64,000 nt of DNA. Origin: Solirubrobacteraceae bacterium (GTDB lineage: Bacteria; Actinomycetota; Thermoleophilia; Solirubrobacterales; Solirubrobacteraceae). The notes beneath the pieces are model-generated. The model was not told the DNA's origin. It ran no database searches and worked only from the letters and a program-made list of their open reading frames with translations. Below are positions 5,943-61,096 of this stretch, in pieces; position 1 is the first letter of the stretch, and each line of letters starts with the position of its first letter. Made by a program: the position numbers and the translations under genes. The stretch is taken from NCBI GenBank assembly GCA_035948945.1, contig DASZIQ010000048.1:14253-78252 (forward strand). The letters are read 5' to 3'.

Positions 5943-6401
5943 ATGACTCCTCCGAGGAACGAGATGCCCGCCGACAAGAGCCACCAAACCCGTCACCACG
6001 TGCAGCTGCCCAGCGGCAAGCAGATTGAGGTCGTCTACCTGGACAACCCCGCGCCGCCTTCGCTTGGACCCGCTCACGCCACCGGCCAGCGGCAGGCCGA
6101 TCCGGCGTCGGAGCCGCTCCACGTCTGCTTCTACTGCGGCGGGGAGCTCGTCCATCCAGTGGATTGGGCCGAAGCCGGGGAGCGGCAGTGGCGGATCCTG
6201 CTGCGCTGCCCCGAATGCGAGGCCACGCGCGAGGGAGTCTTCGATCAGATCGCAGTGGAAGCGCTCGACGATGAGCTCGACCGGGCCTCGGGTTCGCTGC
6301 TGAGCGACCTGCAGCGCGTCACGCACGCCAACATGGCCGAGGAGATCGACCTCTTCATCCGTGCACTCGACGCCGACCTGATCCAGCCCTGCGATTTTTA
6401 G
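5943..6401 (+). CDS. Hypothetical zinc-ribbon protein
   Basis: 152 aa with CxxG...CPEC cysteine pairs (VCFYCGG...LRCPECE). Third-position GC bias is consistent with coding. The 3' end is duplicated downstream. Confidence 0.5.
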   Translation: MTPPRNEMPADKSHQTRHHVQLPSGKQIEVVYLDNPAPPSLGPAHATGQRQADPASEPLHVCFYCGGELVHPVDWAEAGERQWRILLRCPECEATREGVFDQIAVEALDDELDRASGSLLSDLQRVTHANMAEEIDLFIRALDADLIQPCDF

Positions 6402-6508
6402 GGGGAGGGGGTTTGAAGGCCCACCCACCCGGCCTGCCCTCCCCCAGCCCAGTGATCGACCTCTTCATCCGCGCACTCGACGCCGACCTGATCCAGCCCT
6501 GCGATTTC
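6344..6508. repeat. 55-bp direct repeat (6344-6398 and 6454-6508, 53/55 identical) flanking a 55-bp G/C-tract insert
   Basis: Read directly. Both mismatches are synonymous third-position changes (CGT/CGC, TTT/TTC). Each copy ends with its own stop (TAG 6399-6401, TGA 6509-6511). The insert carries GGGGGAGGGGG and CCCACCCACCC...CCCTCCCCC. Confidence 0.9.
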
Positions 6509-30817: not shown

Positions 30818-30992
30818 CGGGCGAAAGCGGAGACGGAGCGTCACCTGTCCTACATCGGCAGCGCGCCCGGCTCGCATTAGCGCCGTTGGACCAAACTCCG
30901 CCACCAGGACGGCCGCTGAGCAAGCGAGGCGAGAACGCAGGGAGCGTGGCGTGCTTAGCACGCGAGCGACCGAGGACAAGCATCGCGCCTGC

Positions 30993-33333: not shown

Positions 33334-34503
33334 ATGAGCAACAGAGCCTCAGTGGCCATCGTCGGGGCGGGAGCAATCGGGCTGAGCGTCGCGCGGGCGC
33401 TCGTGGAGCTGGGCGTCGAGGACGTGGTGGTGTTGGAGCGCACCCACCCGGCCGCCGGCTCCTCCGGGCGTTCGGTGGGTGCGGTGGAGACGCAGTACGT
33501 GGATCCTTTCGACATCGCCCTGCGGGTGTCGTCCAAGCGCGTCTTCGAGCAGCTGGAGCGCGACCACGGGCTGCGCTTTGAGCGCAACGGCTACCTGCGC
33601 ATCGGCCACACCGCCGAGGACGCCGCGCGCTTCGAGCGCAGCGTGGCGGTGCAACGCGAGCTGGGGATCGACGACGCGGTGGTGCTGGACGCGGCGGGCA
33701 TCGCCGCGCGCTTCCCCGACGTGCGCAGCGACGACCTCAGCGCCGGCCTGTACGGGCCCAGCGACGGGTTCGTCGACGGCCACCTCTACTGCATGCTGCT
33801 GGCCGAGCTGGCGCAGGCCGGTGGCGCGCGGCTGAGGCAGCAAACACACCTCACCGGCCACGAGCCGCTCCCCGACGGGCGTCACCGTCTGCTCACCACC
33901 ACCGGCGAGGTGGTGTGCGAGCACGTCGTCAACGCCGCCGGCGCGTGGGCCCAGGAGGTGGGGGAGCTGCTGGGCGTGGCCACGCCGATCCTGCCGCAGC
34001 GCCACGAGGCGGTGAGCATGCACCTGCCGCGCACGCTCGACTACATGATGCCCGAGGTGATGGACTACGCCCCCGCCGAAGGACGCTCGGGGCTGTACTT
34101 CCGCCACGAGACGTTCGACATGTTCCTCGGCGGGCTGCACACCGAGGAGGCGGTGCACCCGGTGGTCGACCCCGACGAGTGGTACGAAGGCGTCGAGCAG
34201 TCCTACCTGGAGCAGCTGGCCGAGCTGCTGCTGTACCGGCTGCCGTCGCTGGCCGACATTCGCCTCGGCCGGGGCTGGGCGGGGCTGTATCCGGTGAGCC
34301 CCGACGGCCGCCCGCTGGTGGGGCCGTGCCCGGAGGATCGGAGTGTGATCGCCGCTTGCGGCGTAGGTGGTTCCGGGATCCAGGTGTCACCGATCGTCGG
34401 GCGACTGGCGGCGGAGTGGATCGTATTTGGGCAGGCGCGCAGCCTGGCGGGGGCGGAGGAGTTGCTGCCGGGACGTGCCTCGCTGTGTGAGTCACGCCCG
34501 TAG
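33334..34503 (+). CDS. FAD-dependent oxidoreductase (DAO family; sarcosine/glycine/amine oxidase-like)
   Basis: N-terminal VAIVGAGAIGLS dinucleotide fold and DAO-type C-terminus. The 3' end overlaps the convergent gene by 12 nt. Confidence 0.8.
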   Translation: MSNRASVAIVGAGAIGLSVARALVELGVEDVVVLERTHPAAGSSGRSVGAVETQYVDPFDIALRVSSKRVFEQLERDHGLRFERNGYLRIGHTAEDAARFERSVAVQRELGIDDAVVLDAAGIAARFPDVRSDDLSAGLYGPSDGFVDGHLYCMLLAELAQAGGARLRQQTHLTGHEPLPDGRHRLLTTTGEVVCEHVVNAAGAWAQEVGELLGVATPILPQRHEAVSMHLPRTLDYMMPEVMDYAPAEGRSGLYFRHETFDMFLGGLHTEEAVHPVVDPDEWYEGVEQSYLEQLAELLLYRLPSLADIRLGRGWAGLYPVSPDGRPLVGPCPEDRSVIAACGVGGSGIQVSPIVGRLAAEWIVFGQARSLAGAEELLPGRASLCESRP

Positions 34504-36546
34504 GGCGCGCGCGAACGCCGCCAGCACGCGGTCGATCACGGCGTCGTCCATCGGTGTGCACACGCACGCCAGCCCGCTGGTCGCGATCAACACGCCCTCC
34601 CGGTAGAGCCGCCACCACAGCTCGGGCAGGCGCTCTGAGTGGAGCTTCAGCAGCGACCCACGCCCGGTCACCTCGTAGCCCTGCTCGGCGAGGCCGGCGC
34701 GCAACCGCTCGCCGAGCGCGTCGATCCGCGCGATCGCCTCCCCGTCGAGCGCGCGCAGCGCGGCGAGGCCGGCGCGCATCGAGACGGGGTTGGCGGAGAA
34801 GGTGCCCGCGACCTGCACCGCGTCGGGGCGGCGCGGGTCGAACACGTCCATCACCTCCGGGCTCCCGCCGAGCGCGCCGATCGGCAGCCCGCCGCCGATC
34901 ACCTTGCCGAGCGTCACGAGGTCGCCCTCGATCCCCCACACACGCCCCGCGCCGCCGGCGCCCATCCGGAAGGTGATCACCTCGTCGAGGATCAGGACGA
35001 TCCCCCGCCGGGCGGTCTCCGCGCGCACGAGGTGGGCGAAGTCGCGCTCCAGCGGGCGCAGGCCGGCGCGGTAGGGCATCAGGTCGAGCAGCACGCAGGC
35101 CACCTGCCCTTCGCGGCGGTCGAGCGCGGCGACGAGACCCTCGCCGTCCCCCAGGGCAACACTCACCACGGCGCCCTTCGCACCCGCCGGCACGCCGCGC
35201 GCCGGGCGGGCGGGGTCCAAATCAGCCAGCGCGTCCCAGGCGCCGTGGTAACAGCCCGCGAAGCGCACCGCCACCTCGCGCCCGGTGGCGGCCCGTGCCG
35301 CACGCACGGCCGCCATCACCGCCTCGGTGCCCGAGCCGGCGAAGCGCCACCGCGGCGCCCACCCGACGCGCTCGGCAAGGTGCTCGGCCAGCTCCACCTC
35401 CGCCGCCGTGGGCAGCCCGAACGCGCTGCCCTCCGCCAGCGCCCGCGTCGCCGCGGCGAGCACCGGCGCGAACGCATGGCCGTGCACGAGCGCGGAGTAG
35501 TCGCCGTGCAGGTCGACCAGCTCGTGGCCGTCCGTGTCGATCAGCCGCCACCCCTCGCCGCGCCGCGCGTACGGGGTGTGGGGGTCCACGTACAGCGTCG
35601 TGCGCGAGGCGCCGCCGGGAAAGCGCGCGTCGGCGCGCTCGTACAGCCGCTCGCTGCTGGCCGAAACGGGGACTCGCGCCGAAGGCGCGTGTCTACCGGC
35701 TTCGGCCGAGCCGGGGACGCCTCCATGCCCCGGATCGACGGCCTCCGCGGGCAGCGGGTTGGAGCCCGCGAAGAAGCTCGCGACGAACGCGTTCGGCGGG
35801 TTGGCGTACAGCTCGGCGGGCGACCCGACGCCCACGATCGCGCCGTCGTGCATGACCGCGATCGTGTCCGACAGCGCGTACGCCTCCTGCTGGTCGTGCG
35901 TCACGTACACGACGGTCGCGCCGAGCTCGTGTTGCAGCGTGCGGATCTCGCGCTCCATCTCGATGCGCAGCGCGCGGTCGAGCGCCCCGAGCGGCTCGTC
36001 CATGAGGATGATCTCGGGGTCGTACACGAGCGCGCGCCCGAGCGCCACCCGCTGCTGCTGGCCGCCCGAGAGCTGACGGGGGCGGCGCTCGCCGAGGCCC
36101 GAGAGGCGCAGCAGCTCGAGCATCGCCTGCACGCGGCGCTCGCGCTCGGCGCGCGGCACGCCGCGCAGCTTCAGCCCGTAGCCGATGTTCTGGACGACGG
36201 TCATATGGGGAAAGAGCGCGTAGTGCTGAAACACCATGCCGACGCCCCGCCGCGCGGGGGGCAGCCGCGAGATGTCGCGCCCGCGCAGGAGCACCTCCCC
36301 GCCGCTGGGAGCCTCGAAGCCGGCGATCACCTTCAGCAGCGTGGTCTTGCCCGAGCCGGAGGGGCCGAGCAGCGTAAGAAGCTCGCCGCGGTGGACGCTC
36401 AGGTCGACGCCGCCGAGCGCGGGGGTGCTGCCGTAGGACTTGTGCAGCGAGCGGATCTCCAAGACCAGCTCGCGGTCGCCGGGCGCATCACGCGACTGTA
36501 CGGCGGGCTGCTGGAGAGGCGGTCGCCGCTCGCCGCCGGCAGCCAT
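34492..36546 (-). CDS. In-frame fusion: PotA-like ABC importer ATPase (aa ~27-262) + class-III aminotransferase (GSA-aminomutase-like, aa ~300-684)
   Basis: Walker A GPSGSGKTT, LSGGQQQR, ILMDEP, then no stop. Linker contains a REP-like element. Aminotransferase then begins at its usual N-terminus (ERLYERADARFPGG) and carries the Lys motif LGKVIGGGLP. Confidence 0.75.
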   Translation of the reverse strand: MAAGGERRPPLQQPAVQSRDAPGDRELVLEIRSLHKSYGSTPALGGVDLSVHRGELLTLLGPSGSGKTTLLKVIAGFEAPSGGEVLLRGRDISRLPPARRGVGMVFQHYALFPHMTVVQNIGYGLKLRGVPRAERERRVQAMLELLRLSGLGERRPRQLSGGQQQRVALGRALVYDPEIILMDEPLGALDRALRIEMEREIRTLQHELGATVVYVTHDQQEAYALSDTIAVMHDGAIVGVGSPAELYANPPNAFVASFFAGSNPLPAEAVDPGHGGVPGSAEAGRHAPSARVPVSASSERLYERADARFPGGASRTTLYVDPHTPYARRGEGWRLIDTDGHELVDLHGDYSALVHGHAFAPVLAAATRALAEGSAFGLPTAAEVELAEHLAERVGWAPRWRFAGSGTEAVMAAVRAARAATGREVAVRFAGCYHGAWDALADLDPARPARGVPAGAKGAVVSVALGDGEGLVAALDRREGQVACVLLDLMPYRAGLRPLERDFAHLVRAETARRGIVLILDEVITFRMGAGGAGRVWGIEGDLVTLGKVIGGGLPIGALGGSPEVMDVFDPRRPDAVQVAGTFSANPVSMRAGLAALRALDGEAIARIDALGERLRAGLAEQGYEVTGRGSLLKLHSERLPELWWRLYREGVLIATSGLACVCTPMDDAVIDRVLAAFARALRA
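35659..35707. repeat. REP-like palindromic element copy (inside the fusion linker)
   Basis: The reverse complement matches 59128-59176 at 46/49 positions. Central stem CGCGCC-GAA-GGCGCG. Confidence 0.85.
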
Positions 36547-38383: not shown

Positions 38384-39475
38384 CTATCCCCGCAGGAAGT
38401 TCTCGTAGGCGGTATTGAGTTCGGTGCCGTGCAGCGCATACCAGGTGAAGTTTGGCACCGCCAGCTGGTTGTAGTTGACGGGGTTGTCGGCGAGCTGGAC
38501 GGCGAACGACTTGGGGATGTACTGGAGCGCCTTGGGGCTGGGCACGGAGACGTGCACTTCCTGCGCCCACTGCGCCTGGTTCTTGGGATGGCTGGCGATC
38601 CAGCTGAGCAGTTTGAACGCGGTCTGCTCATGCGGCGCACCCGCCAAAACCGTCCAGAAGCTGGGTTCGTAGACGCCCTGGGCCCACACGATCTTCACCT
38701 TCACGCCCTCGGCGGCGAGTTCGTAGGCGCGGTTGCTCCACATGATTCCCATGTCCACCTGCCCGGAGCGCATCACCTGCACCTGCTGTTCGCCGGACTG
38801 CCAGAAAACCTTGATGTAGGGCTTGAGGGGTTCGAGCGTTTTGATCACCCGCCCCACATTCACCGGCGCCGTGGCGGTCGCCGAGATCGGCATCCCCGCG
38901 GCCACCTCGGCCTCGGTGGCCTCCTCGATTGGTTCGATCCCCCCAAACATGCGCGACTGAGGGAAGGCCTTTGTGTCGAAGAACTGGGTGGTGTTGGCCG
39001 GGCAGGTGGTCATCTTGGCGGTGAGGCAGACAATCACGTAGCCGAGGTTGGCGTGTGAGAAGCCCCACGTCGTGACGTTCTTGGGGGTCAATTCGCGTTC
39101 CAGTTCGGTTTTGGTGGCTGCCGGCAGCGACGCCAGCTGGTGCTTGGCGGCGAGCGCGTAGGCGGCGCCGCCGCCGACCGAGTCGAGTGCGTCCCATTCG
39201 ATCTTGCCGGCTTTGTTTTGCGCTTCCACGCGCGCCTCCTGCTCGCCCGGCGCGTCGACGAAGGCGAAGCTGGTGTGATTTTCGGCGTCAAACGGCTTCA
39301 GGTAGGACTTTTCGGTGGCTTCATTGATCGGCGCCCCCCAGTCGCCGATCGTGAGCGTGGTTTTGGTGGAGCTGCTGCCGCACGCCGCCACCCCGACCGC
39401 GGCGAGCAGCGCGAGGGTTGCGCAGATCGCGCCGCGCGCCCGCTGGCGGGGAATGGGAATCCCACCCACCCGCAT
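38384..39475 (-). CDS. Extracellular solute-binding lipoprotein (PotD/PotF-like)
   Basis: Start at ATG 39475. Lipobox LAAVGVAAC|GSS. Family-1 SBP-like sequence, upstream of the two permeases. Confidence 0.8.
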   Translation of the reverse strand: MRVGGIPIPRQRARGAICATLALLAAVGVAACGSSSTKTTLTIGDWGAPINEATEKSYLKPFDAENHTSFAFVDAPGEQEARVEAQNKAGKIEWDALDSVGGGAAYALAAKHQLASLPAATKTELERELTPKNVTTWGFSHANLGYVIVCLTAKMTTCPANTTQFFDTKAFPQSRMFGGIEPIEEATEAEVAAGMPISATATAPVNVGRVIKTLEPLKPYIKVFWQSGEQQVQVMRSGQVDMGIMWSNRAYELAAEGVKVKIVWAQGVYEPSFWTVLAGAPHEQTAFKLLSWIASHPKNQAQWAQEVHVSVPSPKALQYIPKSFAVQLADNPVNYNQLAVPNFTWYALHGTELNTAYENFLRG

Positions 39476-39486
39476 CCCACCCACCC
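39461..39486 (-). promoter_or_regulatory. G-quadruplex-prone tract GGGTGGGTGGGATGCGGGTGGGTGGG spanning the start codon of the SBP gene
   Basis: Six G3 runs with 1-4 nt loops on the coding strand. The ATG (39475-39473) lies in the central loop. Made of two tandem copies of GGGTGGGTGGGAT. Confidence 0.5.
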
Positions 39487-39488
39487 TC

Positions 39489-39520
39489 TCGCCGAAGGCG
39501 CGTGTCTCCCGGCTTGGGCC
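39489..39520. repeat. Half copy of the REP-like element
   Basis: TCGCCGAAGGCGCGTGTCTCCCGGCTTGGGCC matches the right half of the 35659-35707 copy. Confidence 0.7.
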
Positions 39521-39630
39521 GCTGGGCACTGCTGGGGGGCGCCCTCGAAGTCTGCAGAAGCTGTTCATCTCCATCCCCTTCCGTTTGATTGGAGGCCCAC
39601 CCGCCCACCTGCCCCGCTTCGGCCGCAGAC

Positions 39631-42372: not shown

Positions 42373-42422
42373 CTGACGCTCGATCGTCACGCTAGCGCAG
42401 GGTGCCGCTGGCGGGCGGGCGG

Positions 42423-42564
42423 GCCACATTGCTACGGCAGGCGGGCAAGCCACCACCGCTGCGGCCGGTAGGCGAGCGAGCCACCATTGCTACGGCCGGC
42501 GGGCAAGCCACTGCTGCGGCGGGCGTGCGAGGCGAGCCACCGATGCTGCGGCCGGCGGGCGAGC
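42423..42564. repeat. Five degenerate tandem repeats (26-31 nt, consensus GCCACCNNTGCTRCGGCCGGCGGGCRA)
   Basis: Read directly. Units start at 42423, 42449, 42480, 42507 and 42536. Units 1 and 3 are 25/27 identical. Unit lengths are not multiples of 3. Located in a divergent intergenic region. Confidence 0.8.
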
Positions 42565-43591: not shown

Positions 43592-43663
43592 TGCCCCCGC
43601 CAGGAGTCGAACCTGGATCCACCGCTTAGGAGGCGGTTGTCTTATCCGTTGGACTACGAGGGC
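43592..43663 (-). tRNA. tRNA-Arg (anticodon CCU), no encoded CCA
   Basis: Manual fold: acceptor GCCCUCG/CGGGGGC, anticodon arm ACCGC-CUCCUAA-GCGGU, T-arm CCAGG-UUCGACU-CCUGG. Confidence 0.8.
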
Positions 43664-56812: not shown

Positions 56813-58186
56813 ATGATCGCCCGCTACCGCGCACTGTTCTCCGCGCCGGGCGTCGGGCGGCTGCTGGTCAGCTCGGTGGTGGGGCGCCTGCCCTCGGGCA
56901 TGTTCTCGCTGGCGATCCTGTTGTTCGTCCACGGGACGACCGACTCCTTCCTGGCGGCCGGCCTCGCGGTCGGAGGGTTCTCGCTGGCGGGCGCACTGAT
57001 CGGCCCGCTGCTGGGGGCGCAGGTGGATCGGCACGGGCAGACGCGGGTGCTGCTGGGAGCCGCCGTGGCCCAGGCGGGGCTGCTGGTGGCGCTGGTGCTC
57101 GTCACCCGGGCAGGCGCGCCTGTGGCGGCCACTGTCGCGCTCGCGGCACTTGCAGGTGGCGCACTGCCGCCGATCGGGGGCTGCGTGCGCGCGCTGTGGC
57201 CGGAGGTCGCCCACGGCGAGGAGCTGCAGACCGCCTACGCCCTGGACGCGACCACCCAGGAGACGATCTGGACGCTCGGCCCGCTGCTGGTGGGCCTCAC
57301 CGCGGGGTTCGTCTCGCCGGCCGCGGCGGTGCTGCTGTGCGCGGCGCTGGCGGTGCTCGGGACCAGCTACTTCGCGACCTCCAGGATCTCCCGCGGCTGG
57401 CGCGCGGATCGGCGCGAGCGCAGGCGAGGAGGCGCGCTGGGCGGCAGCTCCAGCCTGCGCATGCTGCTTTACACGGTCGTGCTCGCCGGCGTGGTGATCG
57501 GAGCGGTCGAGGTGGGGCTGCCCGCGCTGGCGGTGGGACAGGGCGCGCGCTGGTCCTCCGGCCCGCTGCTGGCCCTGTTCAGCCTCGGCAGCATGGCCGG
57601 CGGCCTGATCTACTCCGCCAGGAGCTGGACGAGCGCGATCGGCCGGCGCTACAGCGCGATCCTGATGGCGATGGCGCTCGCGGTGGCGCCGTTGATCGCG
57701 GTGCACTCGCTCGCCCCGGTGTTCGCCCTCAGCGTGCTCGCCGGGCTCTGCCTGGCGCCGATGATGTCCTGTCAATTCTCGCTCGTCGGCGCGCTCGCGC
57801 CGGAGGGCACCGTCACAGAGGCGTTCACCTGGCATCGCGCCGCCACGGTCGCCGGCATGGCCGGGGGATCGGCGTTGGCGGGGTCGCTGATCGACGCCCG
57901 TGGCGCCGGCGCCGCATTCGCGCTGGGCTGCGTGGGCGTGGCGGCGGCCGGGGTGCTCGCGGTGGCCGGACGCCGGCGCATCGAACCTCAAAAAAGGGCG
58001 ATCACCGAGGGCCCGGTGCCGTTCAGGCTGGCGGCCGAGGCGGTGGCGCTCGCGGCGGAGGCGGTGGCGCTGGCCGCGGAGGCGCCGCTCGCTCCGACCG
58101 CCGAGCAGCCGCGGGTGGGTGGGCCTCTCATCCTTGCAGCCGAGGCAGTGGGGCTTGCAGCGGAGGCGGTGGCGAGCGCCGCGTGA
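56813..58186 (+). CDS. MFS transporter with C-terminal AAEAVAL heptad-repeat tail
   Basis: 12-TM-like profile. 21-nt tandem repeats at 58031-58183. Confidence 0.8.
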   Translation: MIARYRALFSAPGVGRLLVSSVVGRLPSGMFSLAILLFVHGTTDSFLAAGLAVGGFSLAGALIGPLLGAQVDRHGQTRVLLGAAVAQAGLLVALVLVTRAGAPVAATVALAALAGGALPPIGGCVRALWPEVAHGEELQTAYALDATTQETIWTLGPLLVGLTAGFVSPAAAVLLCAALAVLGTSYFATSRISRGWRADRRERRRGGALGGSSSLRMLLYTVVLAGVVIGAVEVGLPALAVGQGARWSSGPLLALFSLGSMAGGLIYSARSWTSAIGRRYSAILMAMALAVAPLIAVHSLAPVFALSVLAGLCLAPMMSCQFSLVGALAPEGTVTEAFTWHRAATVAGMAGGSALAGSLIDARGAGAAFALGCVGVAAAGVLAVAGRRRIEPQKRAITEGPVPFRLAAEAVALAAEAVALAAEAPLAPTAEQPRVGGPLILAAEAVGLAAEAVASAA

Positions 58187-58952
58187 GGCGGTGGGGCGCC
58201 AGCGCCGCCCCCCCTGGCGTGGTCTTGGTGAGGCGCGCATACACCAGCAGCCGTTCGGCGGCGCTGAACAGGGGCGTGCAGGCAGAGAGCACGAGGCGGC
58301 TGTAGCCGGCGTGACGGATTGCCGAGGCCACATCGGAGGGCAGGACGCTGCGGTGCCCGATCACCGTGTAGAGGAAGTGCGCGTAGGGCATGTCCACCAC
58401 GATCCGATCCCCGCGGCGCAGCTCGTCGATGTGGCGGAAGGGCGCCAGGAAGGTGGTGCGGTGGCCGGCGATCGCGGTGGTGCCCCCCAGGCCGGGGAAG
58501 CGCGTGCCCGGGTAGCTGCTCTGCGTGTAGATCCCCGGCCCCCGCTCTAGTTCTTCGGTGCCGGTGCCGTACACCAGCACGAAGTCGGCGCCGATGCGCG
58601 GGATGCGGATGGAGCCCACGGCGCTGCCGAGGGCCGCGTGACGGGCAAGCTCGCTCGCCAGGAAGGCGACGCGGCCGCGCTCGTCCGCGAGCTCCAGCAG
58701 GCGCGCGTTCTCCCGCGCGGTGGGCTTGGCATGTTCGAGCTCGTGCAGCGCGCCCCGCAGGTGGTCCTGCTGCAACGTGGCATACAACGCCGAGAACGGC
58801 TCCTGCCACACCAGCGTGACGCCCACGTCGAGCAGCGCCAGCGCCCCCAGGACGATCAGCGCGCTCGAGAGCGCCCGCAGCGCGCGGCGCCCGCGCGCGG
58901 GGTCCCGGCGGCCGTGCACGGGTGGGCTGAGGAGGGTCTCGGACACGATCAC
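58128..58952 (-). CDS. Class E-like sortase (transpeptidase)
   Basis: N-terminal TM (ALSSALIVLGALALL), TAIAGHRTT His, LVLSACTP Cys (TLxTC-type), downstream Arg. GTG 58952 overlaps the upstream stop (GTGA). The 3' end overlaps the convergent MFS gene by 59 nt. Confidence 0.8.
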   Translation of the reverse strand: MIVSETLLSPPVHGRRDPARGRRALRALSSALIVLGALALLDVGVTLVWQEPFSALYATLQQDHLRGALHELEHAKPTARENARLLELADERGRVAFLASELARHAALGSAVGSIRIPRIGADFVLVYGTGTEELERGPGIYTQSSYPGTRFPGLGGTTAIAGHRTTFLAPFRHIDELRRGDRIVVDMPYAHFLYTVIGHRSVLPSDVASAIRHAGYSRLVLSACTPLFSAAERLLVYARLTKTTPGGAALAPHRLTRRSPPPPLQAPLPRLQG

Positions 58953-61048
58953 CGTCGCAGCGCGGACTGGGTGCCGACCGAAGCTGGGAGACACGCGCCT
59001 TTGGCGCTGGCCGATTTGGGGATGCGAGCGAAGCGAGTGTCTCCCCAATCGGTCCCCATTTCGGCCAGCGACCCGGGTCCAGCATAGGACAGCGGCCCGC
59101 GACCGAAGCCGGGAGACGCGAGCCGGTGACCGAAGCCGGGTGACACGCGCCTTCGGCGCGAGTCCCCGTTTCGGCCAGCATCCCCGTTTCGGCCAACGAT
59201 CGGCTCGCGATCGCCGGGCCACTCATGCGGCTCGCCGGCGTCGTCCTCGTTGGCGACGCGCGGGGCGAGCGCCACCAGCAGCGCCGCCGCGAGACAGCCG
59301 CAGGCGACGGACCACAGCACCGCGCCGGCGAACCCGATGCGCCCGCCGGCGAGCAGCAGCAGCGCGGTGTGCGCCACGCCTCCGGGCCCCAGGTGGAGCT
59401 GGTGAGCGTAGAAGGCCACAAGCAGCGCGAGCGGCGCCACGCCGAGCGCGACCAGCGCGAGCGCCTGGATGCGGCCCCCGCCGGCCCTGCCCCCGCCCGC
59501 GCCGACGCCGCGCCCGCCTGCACCCCACGCGCCGGGCGGCGCGGCGGCGAATATCAGCCACAGGTTCAATGCCGGCAGGAGCAGCAGCGCGGTGAACGGA
59601 TCGGACACCCATACCACCACCGTGAGGCCGCCTAGCACGAGCAGCATCCCGAGCGCCGCGGCGTCGCCCTGCGGACGCACCGGGAGTGCGAGCCGGCGCA
59701 TCAGCGCCGGCCACGCCAGCCAGGCGAGCACCAGCACGAGCGCGCTCGCCAGCACCGCCTCCAGGGCGTGGCCGTCGAACGGGAGCGCCGCTTCGGAGAC
59801 GGGCGGGCGCGGCGCGGGGATCGCGCCGAGCGAGCCCAGCAGGATCGCGAACAGCGCACAGGCGAGGAACGGGAGCGCGCACGCCAGCGCCCACACCACC
59901 CAGCGCCCGGCCGATCGATCGGAGGCGCCGCGGGTCGGCCCGCGGCGCCGGCGCAGGCGCGCGAGGCCGTCCCCGAGCACCGCCAGCGCCGGCAGCAGCA
60001 GCGCCGCGACCAGCAGGCGCAGCGCCCACGCGGGGATCGCCTTCTGCTGGATCGGCAGCCCCGTTTCGAGGCCGCTCTCATTCGCTTCGCCGCCGCCGAT
60101 CGTAGGCCCGCCGTCCAGCGCGTACACGGCGGCGAGCGCCGCGCGCCCGAGCGCTTCCAGGCGTCCCGCGCTCACCGGTTCGCCGGCCGGGGGAGCCTGT
60201 TCGCCGCCGGCTCCCACCAGCACCGCGGGCAGCCCGTGGGCATCGAGCGAGCTCTGTTCGCCGCCGGCGAGCGGGAAGGCGAGGTGCGCGAGCTGCGTGA
60301 GCATCCCGGGGGCGGCGGTCGAGCCCCCCGCCTGCTGCGCGACCGCCGCCGCCACGGTGCTCTGCAACAGCGCCGGCGCCGAGCCCGCAGAGGCCGAGAA
60401 CGACGCCACCTCGGGCCCGGACGCGCGCGTGCCCGCGAGATCGCCGAGCACCAGCGCGGCGTCGAAGCGGCCGCCCAGGATTTCGCTCGCGTGCGCCGCG
60501 AAGTCCGCGGCCCCTCCGTTCCCGCCCGAGCCGCCGCTGGTCGAGACCAGCACGATCGCATGCTGCGTCTCGCCGGCGGCGAGCACCCGCGCGAGTTCGA
60601 GCAGCGCCGCGGTGGCGGACAGCTCCGCCTTTGATGGGAACCCACCCGCCCCGGCGGCGTCGCGGTGGGCGAGGATCACGATCGGCGTCTCCCCCGTGGT
60701 GCCAGGCCGTTGCGCGATCACGGTGGTGAGCGTGCGCTCCCCGTCGATCGTCTGCGCGCGCACGCTGCGCGTGCTCACCGCGAAGCCACCCTTGGCGGCG
60801 CCCCCCAACCCCCGCAGCGTCCCCGCCACGTACGCGGCGAGCCGCTGGTCGCCCGCGCTGCCGGGGCGGCGTTCGGGAAACTGCCGGGCGAGCCCTTGCA
60901 GCGTGGCGAAGGCGCGCGCGCCTTCGAAGGCGTCGGGAGCAAGGTTGGAGCCGAGCGGCGCGGTGCGCCCGGTGAGCGAGAAGCCCGCGATCACCAACGC
61001 GAACAGCAGCGGGGCGAACGCTGCGCGATAGATGCGTCCGTTGAGCAC
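58949..61048 (-). CDS. Polytopic membrane protein with M28-peptidase-like extracytoplasmic domain (metal ligands appear degenerate)
   Basis: PIVILAHRDA and ALLELARVL resemble M28, but the expected Asp and Glu-Glu ligand positions are not conserved by eye. Start set at GTG 61048 because the longer ORF overlaps treT. C-terminal ~85 aa are encoded by REP-like elements. Confidence 0.55.
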   Translation of the reverse strand: MLNGRIYRAAFAPLLFALVIAGFSLTGRTAPLGSNLAPDAFEGARAFATLQGLARQFPERRPGSAGDQRLAAYVAGTLRGLGGAAKGGFAVSTRSVRAQTIDGERTLTTVIAQRPGTTGETPIVILAHRDAAGAGGFPSKAELSATAALLELARVLAAGETQHAIVLVSTSGGSGGNGGAADFAAHASEILGGRFDAALVLGDLAGTRASGPEVASFSASAGSAPALLQSTVAAAVAQQAGGSTAAPGMLTQLAHLAFPLAGGEQSSLDAHGLPAVLVGAGGEQAPPAGEPVSAGRLEALGRAALAAVYALDGGPTIGGGEANESGLETGLPIQQKAIPAWALRLLVAALLLPALAVLGDGLARLRRRRGPTRGASDRSAGRWVVWALACALPFLACALFAILLGSLGAIPAPRPPVSEAALPFDGHALEAVLASALVLVLAWLAWPALMRRLALPVRPQGDAAALGMLLVLGGLTVVVWVSDPFTALLLLPALNLWLIFAAAPPGAWGAGGRGVGAGGGRAGGGRIQALALVALGVAPLALLVAFYAHQLHLGPGGVAHTALLLLAGGRIGFAGAVLWSVACGCLAAALLVALAPRVANEDDAGEPHEWPGDREPIVGRNGDAGRNGDSRRRRVSPGFGHRLASPGFGRGPLSYAGPGSLAEMGTDWGDTRFARIPKSASAKGACLPASVGTQSALRR
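58976..59198. repeat. Cluster of REP-like palindromic elements (at least 3 full or partial units)
   Basis: Best unit is 59128-59176, GACCGAAGCCGGGTGACACGCGCCTTCGGCGCGAGTCCCCGTTTCGGCC. Partial units at 59099-59127 and 59181-59194. Composite unit at 58976-59068 with a nested hairpin, CCGATTTGGGGA...TCCCCAATCGG. Confidence 0.85.
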
Positions 61049-61096
61049 CTCGAAGAGAGTAACCCGGGGCGCCTGGAGTATCGGTATCGTGCGCGC

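Follow-up and report, generated by a model that had tools for sequence, protein, structure and literature searches.

A small hairpin-forming and probably mobile repeat of Solirubrobacterales that is carried in frame within genes

Repetitive extragenic palindromic (REP) sequences, together with REP-associated tyrosine transposases (RAYTs), insert next to a short target in a manner that resembles the chemistry of insertion sequences (IS) of the IS200/IS605 kind. In both systems, single-strand transposition uses a hairpin substrate and a short target on one side, and leaves no duplication. Among actinobacteria, mycobacterial interspersed repetitive units (MIRUs) are repeats of 40-100 nucleotides (nt) that occur where genes adjoin in operons, with short open reading frames (ORFs) running through them. 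The subject of this study is a palindromic repeat from a 64-kb window (the whole stretch of 64,000 nt that was analysed, from contig DASZIQ010000048.1 of a Solirubrobacteraceae bacterium, assembly GCA_035948945.1), which an earlier reading of the sequence, hereafter the original prediction, had described as a dispersed and mobile family resembling REP sequences and transposable elements of the miniature inverted-repeat kind (MITEs). That description is borne out by searches beyond the window and by comparison with relatives, and the repeat is likely to be a small, non-autonomous, hairpin-forming mobile element of the Solirubrobacterales.

The closest analogues are the Rickettsia palindromic elements (RPEs), which are approximately 100-150 bp in length, encode a peptide conserved within each family and have obligate intracellular alpha-proteobacteria as hosts (Ogata et al., 2000, as reviewed in PMC10969869). 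Like RPEs, the repeat consists of dispersed selfish palindromes, many of which are carried in frame by functional genes unrelated to one another, where the protein fold can accommodate them. Unlike RPEs, the Solirubrobacterales unit is only 45-52 nt in length, is used in six frames and nests within itself, and its hosts are free-living, high-GC Actinomycetota. The repeat is a functional analogue of RPEs and not a member of their family, being set apart by size, host, frame usage and nesting. Selfish DNA carried in frame within genes is usually presented as an extreme feature of Rickettsia; the present family adds an independent example, apparently on a larger scale, among Actinomycetota that are abundant in soil, with a much smaller unit that is codon-quantised, self-nesting and readable in any frame.

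With REP sequences, the unit shares the format of a 20-65-nt imperfect palindrome dispersed in hundreds of copies, with a short conserved motif at the foot of the hairpin (GCTGG on the complementary strand in this case), the location of many copies after stop codons, and the lack of target duplication. However, the GT(A/G)G tetranucleotide is absent from the 5' hairpin foot, where the flanks are instead (G)A and CCAGC, and one third of the copies are intragenic, so the family as a whole is not extragenic. REP doublets forming hairpins (REPINs) are inverted doublets, whereas composite copies here are nested, and no RAYT was found in the ~1 Mb searched. Bacterial MITEs such as Correia/NEMIS, ERIC, RUP, BOX and Nezha are polymorphic for insertion and occasionally lie in frame inside genes (PMC10969869; PMC2759123). 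The repeat resembles them in being non-autonomous, in having terminal inverted repeats that fold into a hairpin and in its insertion polymorphism, but it is codon-quantised, lies below the usual size of MITEs, makes no target duplication longer than 2 nt, and has no parent IS with matching ends in the ~1 Mb searched. Similarities to MIRUs include the actinobacterial host, a length within 40-100 nt, the gene junctions of operons and read-through; MIRUs, however, form head-to-tail intergenic tandem arrays, while the copies described here are nested intragenic palindromes (L L core R R), and a MIRU-like tandem repeat was rejected on the grounds that the units are nested and not tandem.

The repeat unit and its sites of insertion

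As predicted, the 49-nt unit at 59128-59176 on the plus strand recurs in inverted orientation at 35659-35707 on the minus strand, with 46 of 49 positions identical (three mismatches); shuffled sequence gave no matches. The 45-nt hairpin core reads CCGAAGCC...TTTCGG and forms 17 base pairs with compensatory changes. Alignment of copies yielded the 52-nt consensus GACCGAAGCCGGGAGACACGCGCCTTCGGCGCGAATCCCCGTTTCGGCCAGC, laid out as GA, the 45-nt hairpin and CCAGC, within which an imperfect palindrome of 45 nt, CCGAAGCCGGGAGACACGCGCCTTCGGCGCGAATCCCCGTTTCGG, forms the mobile quantum; it equals 15 codons and is usually flanked by (G)A and CCAGC. Consensus positions 3-47 make up the 17-bp imperfect hairpin, which has a DNA minimum free energy of -16.6 kcal/mol (z -3.2), and the arms CCGAAGCCGGG and CCCCGTTTCGG pair with one another as terminal inverted repeats. 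Across 48 copies, 97% of cells are paired and 10 cells are changed on both sides, in comparison to 1.8 in shuffles. Compensatory variants of the core stem include GCGCC/GGCGC, CGGCC/GGCCG, GGGCC/GGCCC and CTCGCC/GGCGAG, in support of the imperfect palindrome that had been proposed from the window alone.

Alongside this unit, referred to as type A, there is a paralogous type-B unit, GACCGATTGGGGAGACACTCGCTTCGCTCGCATCCCCAAATCGGCCAGC, which has the same skeleton and compensatory changes in its arms (AAGCC/GTTT vs ATTGG/CAAAT). Annotation of clusters by blastn-short with the individual modules identified 78 plain units and 26 long forms of 93-94 nt, in which a type-A unit carries an inverted type-B unit in its loop, in the order LA RB- LB- RA. 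Further nests consist of A in A, A in B, and three or four layers, with architectures such as LA LA RA RA and LB LA RA RB. A covariance model built from the 48 copies gave significant matches in the window at only three loci, and the rows of Tandem Repeats Finder at 59101-59195 correspond to nested arms instead of tandem units.

An exact-pattern scan of one genome per species recovered at least 118 stretches, all of them in metagenome-assembled genomes (MAGs) of Solirubrobacterales or Solirubrobacteraceae; the first 80 alone come from at least 42 different genomes. Because loci were sampled by an exact 22-base type-A pattern, these figures underestimate both diversity and copy number. Copy number per genome can be estimated only roughly, from three loci in the 64-kb window and 35 non-ascertained clusters in ~1 Mb. 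No description of a Solirubrobacterales or Conexibacter repeat family was found in the literature searched. A census of 1.84 billion protein cluster representatives with the 32-residue long-form peptide of the window returned only 11 short proteins, a result that is uninformative because the query is short and representatives often lack the insert.

Evidence for mobility comes from matching the flanks of every cluster against all sampled loci, which revealed empty, single and nested states at the same orthologous sites. Short-filled and empty sites have gaps of 60-62 and 15-17 nt, respectively, a difference of 45 nt that recurs at no fewer than 10 independent sites, coding and non-coding. Long forms exceed short forms by 42 nt (14 codons), and for multi-layer nests the difference from empty sites comes close to sums of 45- and 42-nt steps. 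At clean junctions, the insertion point lies immediately 5' of C(C/T)(A/C)GC, a pentanucleotide that is already present in the empty site. With a slash for the insertion point and [45] for the hairpin, such junctions are CGGAG GC/CCAGC becoming GA[45]CCAGC (L083 empty, L048 filled), GGTGCC AC/CCAGC (L125 empty, L123 and L124 filled), CTCGG/CCAGC (L119 empty, window filled) and CTG CG/CTCGC becoming TA[45]CTCGC (L007 empty, L057 filled). No target-site duplication longer than 2 nt was found in the clean filled and empty pairs, where nothing goes beyond an ambiguous CC; the two bases upstream are often not the same in filled as in empty sites, which leaves the 5' dinucleotide ambiguous. Series in which the same residue of a conserved protein is empty or carries a single, double or triple insert, as seen in PheA, the M28 tail, RecG and Era, provide a natural experiment on insertion tolerance and linker accretion.

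Many copies lie in the loops of other hairpins whose 3' half-stem resembles the target (GGCGAGC, GCTCGC). These loop hosts include members of the same family, the type-B family and terminator-like palindromes, resulting in nests of the Russian-doll kind. In the proposed mechanism, a 45-nt hairpin would insert immediately 5' of C(C/T)(A/C)GC, often into an existing hairpin loop, and copies would persist at permissive places such as tails, linkers and surface loops, where they may be translated as insertions of 14-17 residues. The hairpin substrate, the short one-sided target and the lack of duplication resemble the single-strand transposition of IS200/IS605 and REP/RAYT, and by this analogy the mover is probably a trans-acting enzyme of one of these kinds that acts on hairpins of single-stranded DNA, as a candidate class. 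Deletions between arms are at least plausible, and solitary arms exist. The defined target and the hairpin make the chemistry of transposition testable.

Copies within and between genes

The window has a G+C content of ~70% and contains long ORFs in many frames, and for this reason in-frame read-through was tested against real genes. A codon log-odds model, for which 209 long ORFs of these loci served as training set, was applied to the 120 nt flanking each of 160 clusters on either side, and flanks scoring above 99% of shuffles were taken as coding; 149 clusters were evaluable. A simpler rule based on G+C at third codon positions was dropped, as it was too strict and made many false non-coding calls. 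Gene calls accordingly rest on codon statistics and Pfam. Both flanks are coding on the same strand and in the same frame, without a stop between them, in 50 of the 149 clusters, and lie on the same strand in different frames in seven. A further 23 clusters are at 3' gene ends, 21 at 5' gene ends and one between convergent coding flanks, while the remaining 47 are non-coding on both sides. About 26 of the 149 are inside other palindromic repeats, including 11 of the 47 with non-coding flanks. In the seven tandem-gene cases with different frames, the upstream ORF crosses the element and meets a stop 5-40 nt beyond. The original prediction that copies always lie at gene junctions therefore holds only in part: the window copies are near gene ends, but inside ORFs and not in spacers, and the family at large is not confined to junctions.

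A Pfam scan of 30 in-frame host ORFs showed 29 to be ordinary single proteins, in which the insert falls within one of the protein's own domains or between them, and the only two-gene fusion is the ATPase::aminotransferase of the window. Hosts, often essential genes, include PheA (prephenate dehydratase domain), RecG, the SMC hinge, the AddB nuclease, Era (between the GTPase and KH domains), GlnA (glutamine synthetase), HemC, NadE, TilS, Acs (acetyl-CoA synthetase), MMPL, GT87 and PMT glycosyltransferases, and a histidine kinase. The insert interrupts a Pfam domain in PheA, RecG, the SMC hinge, GT87, AddB, Era, GlnA, NadE, Acs and others. In PheA, the insert appears as a clean 15-residue gap relative to the solved prephenate dehydratase 3mwb, with conserved segments on both sides. 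Copies of this kind inflate and distort gene calls in Solirubrobacterales MAGs, where they can be mistaken for fusions or novel domains.

There is no bias in orientation relative to transcription, either within genes (27 vs 23) or at 3' ends (10 vs 13). All window copies are read through in frame, and the two translations quoted in the original prediction, AEAGRHAPSARVPVSA and GRNGDSRRRRVSPGFGH, match the ORF output. The predicted use of both orientations and different frames extends across the family to all six reading frames, represented by 18, 17, 9, 7, 1 and 1 module anchors, counts that are not independent because orthologues and nests are included. Peptides encoded by the element include DRSRETRAFGANPRFGQ and LAETGIRAEGACLPASV; the most basic peptides, which contain proline or tryptophan (PKPGDTRLRRESPFRPA and WPKRGFAPKARVSRLRS), come from the two rare frames. 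The orthologous copy in a membrane protein of the GT87 family yields DRSRETRAFGANPRFGQ in L110 (7496-7547) and PKPGDTRLRRESQFRPA in L039 (4242-4293), owing to a +1 change before the copy that is offset by a -1 change after it. This compensated switch indicates that the flanking frame is under selection and the inserted peptide is not.

With a length of 45 nt, equal to 15 codons, and a consensus that is stop-free in all six frames, a copy in coding sequence neither shifts nor stops the frame. Among the short copies, 60 of 78 are fully open in six frames, in comparison to 17% of composition-matched shuffles. As the short copies share descent, however, their openness is equivalent to approximately a single observation (p about 0.17 and 0.02 for the short and the long form, respectively).

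Explanations for the spread of the repeat

Several observations weigh against a mobile hairpin as the explanation. The 2-7 nt beside the hairpin often differ between filled and empty sites (GG CTCGC vs GA CCAGC), so the exact borders of the moved DNA are ambiguous and microhomology-templated copying is possible. Polymorphic sites are ambiguous in direction and could represent insertions or losses, and the difference between the window and L119 at the fusion linker has 14-nt direct repeats on either side, which would also allow deletion by slippage. Outside the positions fixed by the scan pattern, orthologous copies are 98% identical while their coding flanks are 87% identical; this conservation could reflect recent independent insertion, turnover, gene conversion or a selected function. 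The search for a RAYT-type transposase that the original prediction had suggested, made by tblastn with Escherichia coli RayT on ~1 Mb of loci, gave no match (best E 0.26); a weak match in L021 was rejected, as it lies in a 423-aa ORF without an evident HUH motif. Nor was a parent element with the same ends found, as no pair of left and right arms lies 0.3-3 kb apart in the ~1 Mb, and no locus holds both a solitary left and a solitary right arm. Openness in six frames is weak evidence, as it is not improbable for one consensus of such composition, and it is conservation of the frame that points to translation through the copies. A more far-reaching version of the mobile reading, in which the element is active, its 15-codon length and six-frame openness were selected for life in genes, its enzyme is of an unfamiliar type that recognises hairpin loops and CYMGC and is neither a classical RAYT nor a DDE transposase, and the family acts as an order-wide source of peptide insertions, growing linkers and deletion-made fusions, can be put forward only tentatively as a whole.

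According to the original prediction, the element is recombinogenic and removes stop codons and intergenic spacers, creating fusions and C-terminal extensions. This appears rather doubtful as an account of the family: although the ATPase::aminotransferase ORF truly joins two genes that more distant orthologues keep apart (L121), with an arm-like remnant exactly at the junction of the fused genes examined at the DNA level, the fusion is also present without a complete unit in P0005, P0006 and P0007, and 29 of the 30 scanned hosts are not fused. The seven upstream ORFs that run through the element to a stop beyond it are similarly suggestive, but nine intergenic copies lie downstream of an intact stop, and in the M28-like peptidase of the window the conserved terminus, the stop codon and the GTGA overlap with the next gene are all intact, which contradicts the claim of erasure at this site, where the insertions are internal. 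Spread by homology- or microhomology-templated copying, for example gene conversion or template switching at hairpins, without an element-specific transposase, is unlikely. It would accommodate the replacement of 2-7 flanking nt by consensus-like flanks, the constant net gain of 45 nt despite varying borders, the greater similarity of orthologous copies than of their flanks, and the failure to find a transposase in the ~1 Mb searched. Insertion sites, however, have no similarity beyond the pentanucleotide, and the constant position 5' of CYMGC and the strong preference for loops are a better fit to site-specific single-strand transposition.

It is improbable that the repeat is primarily a functional RNA or DNA signal under selection, such as a terminator, mRNA stabiliser, processing site or protein-binding site, with its spread being secondary. 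A conserved hairpin with covariation, high sequence conservation and many intergenic copies after stop codons inside terminator-like palindromes would all be expected of such a signal. In contrast, a U-run is absent 3' of the hairpin, where CCAGC and variable sequence are found instead, and Rfam 15 at the gathering threshold has no family for the unit (143 kb with 11 copies gave only tRNAs and a SAM riboswitch). Orientation is unbiased, one third of the copies are inside the coding sequences of unrelated genes, and presence varies among close relatives. A protein-level motif, in the form of a shared linker or low-complexity peptide that drives the similarity in DNA, is effectively refuted by frame and orientation usage, despite in-frame translation and the over-use of some frames: copies occur in both orientations, in six frames and in non-coding DNA, orthologous copies are read in different frames (L039 and L110), and the insert is absent from orthologues and solved homologues. 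Removal of the hairpins from mRNA or their bypassing by the ribosome, as in T4 gene 60 and the mitochondrial byps, is very improbable; a size of 45-50 nt and the hairpin may recall known bypass gaps, but these are unconstrained in length and stop content and have matched take-off and landing codons, while the copies described here are stop-free multiples of three, and indels in orthologous copies are frame-compensated, in favour of plain translation. A CRISPR array was rejected because the copies are not evenly spaced direct repeats, an intein or intron because the unit is too small and lacks junction residues, and an assembly artefact because the same states are found in independent assemblies, closed chromosomes included.

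Sites in the window and neighbouring repeats

The features of the three window loci are collected in Table 1.

Table 1. Copies of the repeat and their host and neighbouring genes in the window
Feature	Position	Strand	Evidence or remark
ABC-ATPase::class-III aminotransferase fused ORF	34492..36546	-	hosts the 35.6-kb copy
Complete type-A unit in fusion linker	35656..35707	-	covariance 76 bits; translated (S)AEAGRHAPSARVPVSAS
Right-arm-like remnant GTCCCCGGCTCGGCC	35704..35718	-	directly upstream of the unit in gene sense; also in L119
Solute-binding lipoprotein ORF	38384..39574	-	hosts the half copy
Half copy (left arm and core)	39489..39520	-	inverted-repeat arms I3 and I19; module match
Sortase gene	58128..58952	-	GTG start 58950-58952; Pfam Sortase on orthologous neighbours
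M28-like membrane peptidase gene	58949..61060	-	~703 codons, start approximate; ORF list
Long form, type A with inverted type B in loop	58976..59069	+	93-94 nt; architecture in 26 other clusters
Type-B unit GACCGATTGGGGAGACACTCGCTTCGCTCGCATCCCCAAATCGGCCAGC inside long form	59006..59054	-	covariance 33.9 bits, E 1.1e-5; module matches LB-, RB-
Outer type-A' unit, left half (arm, core-left, loop)	59102..59127	+	hosts the inner copy
Complete inner type-A unit	59128..59179	+	hairpin core 59130-59174; covariance 82.6 bits, E 4.6e-17
Outer type-A' unit, right arm ATCCCCGTTTCGGCCAAC	59180..59197	+	

At the end of the M28-like peptidase gene, the partial copies that had been predicted at 58976-59068, 59099-59127 and 59181-59194 are real, and resolve into a long form and an A-in-A nest. 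The nest, of 96 nt (59102-59197), folds as one long hairpin with -26.3 kcal/mol. Its inner unit accounts for exactly 45 nt more than in L123, which carries the outer unit alone and intact at the orthologous site (ACCGAAGCCGGGAGACGCGAGCCGGTGGCTCGCATCCCCGTTTCGGCCAAC); L124 and L125 are empty there. At the site of the long form, the short form is present in L123 and L124, and nothing is inserted in L125. Among relatives, therefore, both sites are empty in L125, only site 2 is filled, with the short form, in L124/P0147 and P0152, and a single unit is found at each of the two sites in L123/P0129.

The peptidase tail ...EPIKIRGPLSYAGPGSLGGTESALRR, which precedes the stop, is uninterrupted in about 110 of the 120 best homologues. 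In the window, the conserved end, ...RGPLSYAGPGSL followed by GGTESALRR and the stop, is split by two insertions, so that the protein ends in ...EPIV-[GRNGDAGRNGDSRRRRVSPGFGHRLASPGFG]-RGPLSYAGPGSL-[AEMGTDWGDTRFARIPKSASAKGACLPASV]-GTQSALRR and the ancestral terminus ...GT(E/Q)SALRR is kept. The segment RGPLSYAGPGSL is encoded at 59066-59101, and GTQSALRR with the stop at 58949-58975; the stop codon TGA (58949-58951) is intact and overlaps the GTG start of the sortase gene as GTGA. Altogether, the in-frame insertions at 59102-59197 and 58976-59065 add 59 residues through four units stacked at two sites. Five M28 homologues (P0145, P0154, P0158, P0179 and P0203) have 5-6 extra residues at insertion site 1 (for example IVGRVPIGRGPLSY vs IKIRGPLSY), which could be scars of lost elements. 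Further in-frame copies are seen in other species at a third position in the M28-like gene, at 2823-2874 in L124, at approximately residue 503 in P0134 and at approximately residue 506 in P0212.

In the fused ORF, Pfam places ABC_tran before the linker unit and Aminotran_3 after it, and the unit adds 15 residues to the protein; at this linker, L119 is equivalent to the window minus exactly the 45-nt hairpin. All nine closest relatives (79-95% identity) share the fused architecture, which is confined to this narrow clade; at 73% identity or less, orthologues encode the aminotransferase as a protein on its own. The ATPase of L121 is a distinct protein of 358 aa, including a C-terminal domain of ~96 residues, and its gene stops 2 nt short of the aminotransferase start. 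Relative to such unfused orthologues, the fusion reflects the loss of ~96 codons, comprising the C-terminal regulatory domain of the ATPase, the stop and the start. Fused genes carry the full unit in the window and P0001, the long form in P0003 and P0009/L074, and no complete unit in P0005/L119, P0006 and P0007/L120. Every fused gene examined at the DNA level has an arm-like remnant exactly at the junction, reading ATCCCCGGCTCGGCCAGC in L119 and, more diverged, CGGACTCGACCAGC in L120. Deletion mediated by the element could have made this one real fusion, which is associated with the element. The fused gene of one close relative, P0022, is frameshifted just after the junction.

The half copy that had been predicted at the third locus was recovered both from its inverted-repeat arms and as a module match. 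It lies within 72 extra in-frame nt in the 5' part of the solute-binding lipoprotein ORF, which are absent in L119, where the called start is the same ATG as in the window. L120 has a long-form element just upstream of the start of this gene. An internal start is possible in the window ORF, and translation of the half-copy stretch is uncertain.

Other repeats in the window and the sampled loci serve as hosts for type A. At 30925-30980, the window has a different palindromic repeat, GAGAACGCAGGGAGCGTGGCGTGCTTAGCACGCGAGCGACCGAGGAC, which is the empty counterpart of a site in L101 that holds an A-in-A nest. The arm sequence of this repeat, GAGCGACYGAGGAC, flanks type-A copies in L002, L003, L010, L061, L079, L084 and L098, indicating that the loop of this family is another place where type A inserts. 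A terminator-like palindrome, AGAGGGGCCC GG CTCGC CGGCCTGCGGCCG ACTGCGCCACCCTCT, lies just after stop codons and hosts type A in ~17 clusters. It is found in L028 (2716-2900 and 4735-4930), where the composite of palindrome and type A is tandemly duplicated after csrA, and also in L018, L032, L034, L047, L066, L069, L073, L078, L087, L092 and L105; element-free versions are present in L116 and L067.

Three further repeats were observed in the window. A 27-nt tandem repeat of 5.6 copies, with the consensus GGCCGGCGGGCGAGCCACCACTGCTGC, occupies 42410-42564, ~1 kb from a tRNA gene (43592-43663). Tandem repeats of 21 nt at 58027-58084 and 58133-58172 encode (AAEAVAL)n at the C-terminus of a major facilitator superfamily transporter ORF (56813-58186, plus strand) that is convergent with the sortase gene and overlaps its 3' end. 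Finally, a 54-nt direct repeat is present at 6344-6397 and 6454-6507, with copies that are 98% identical and 110 nt apart.

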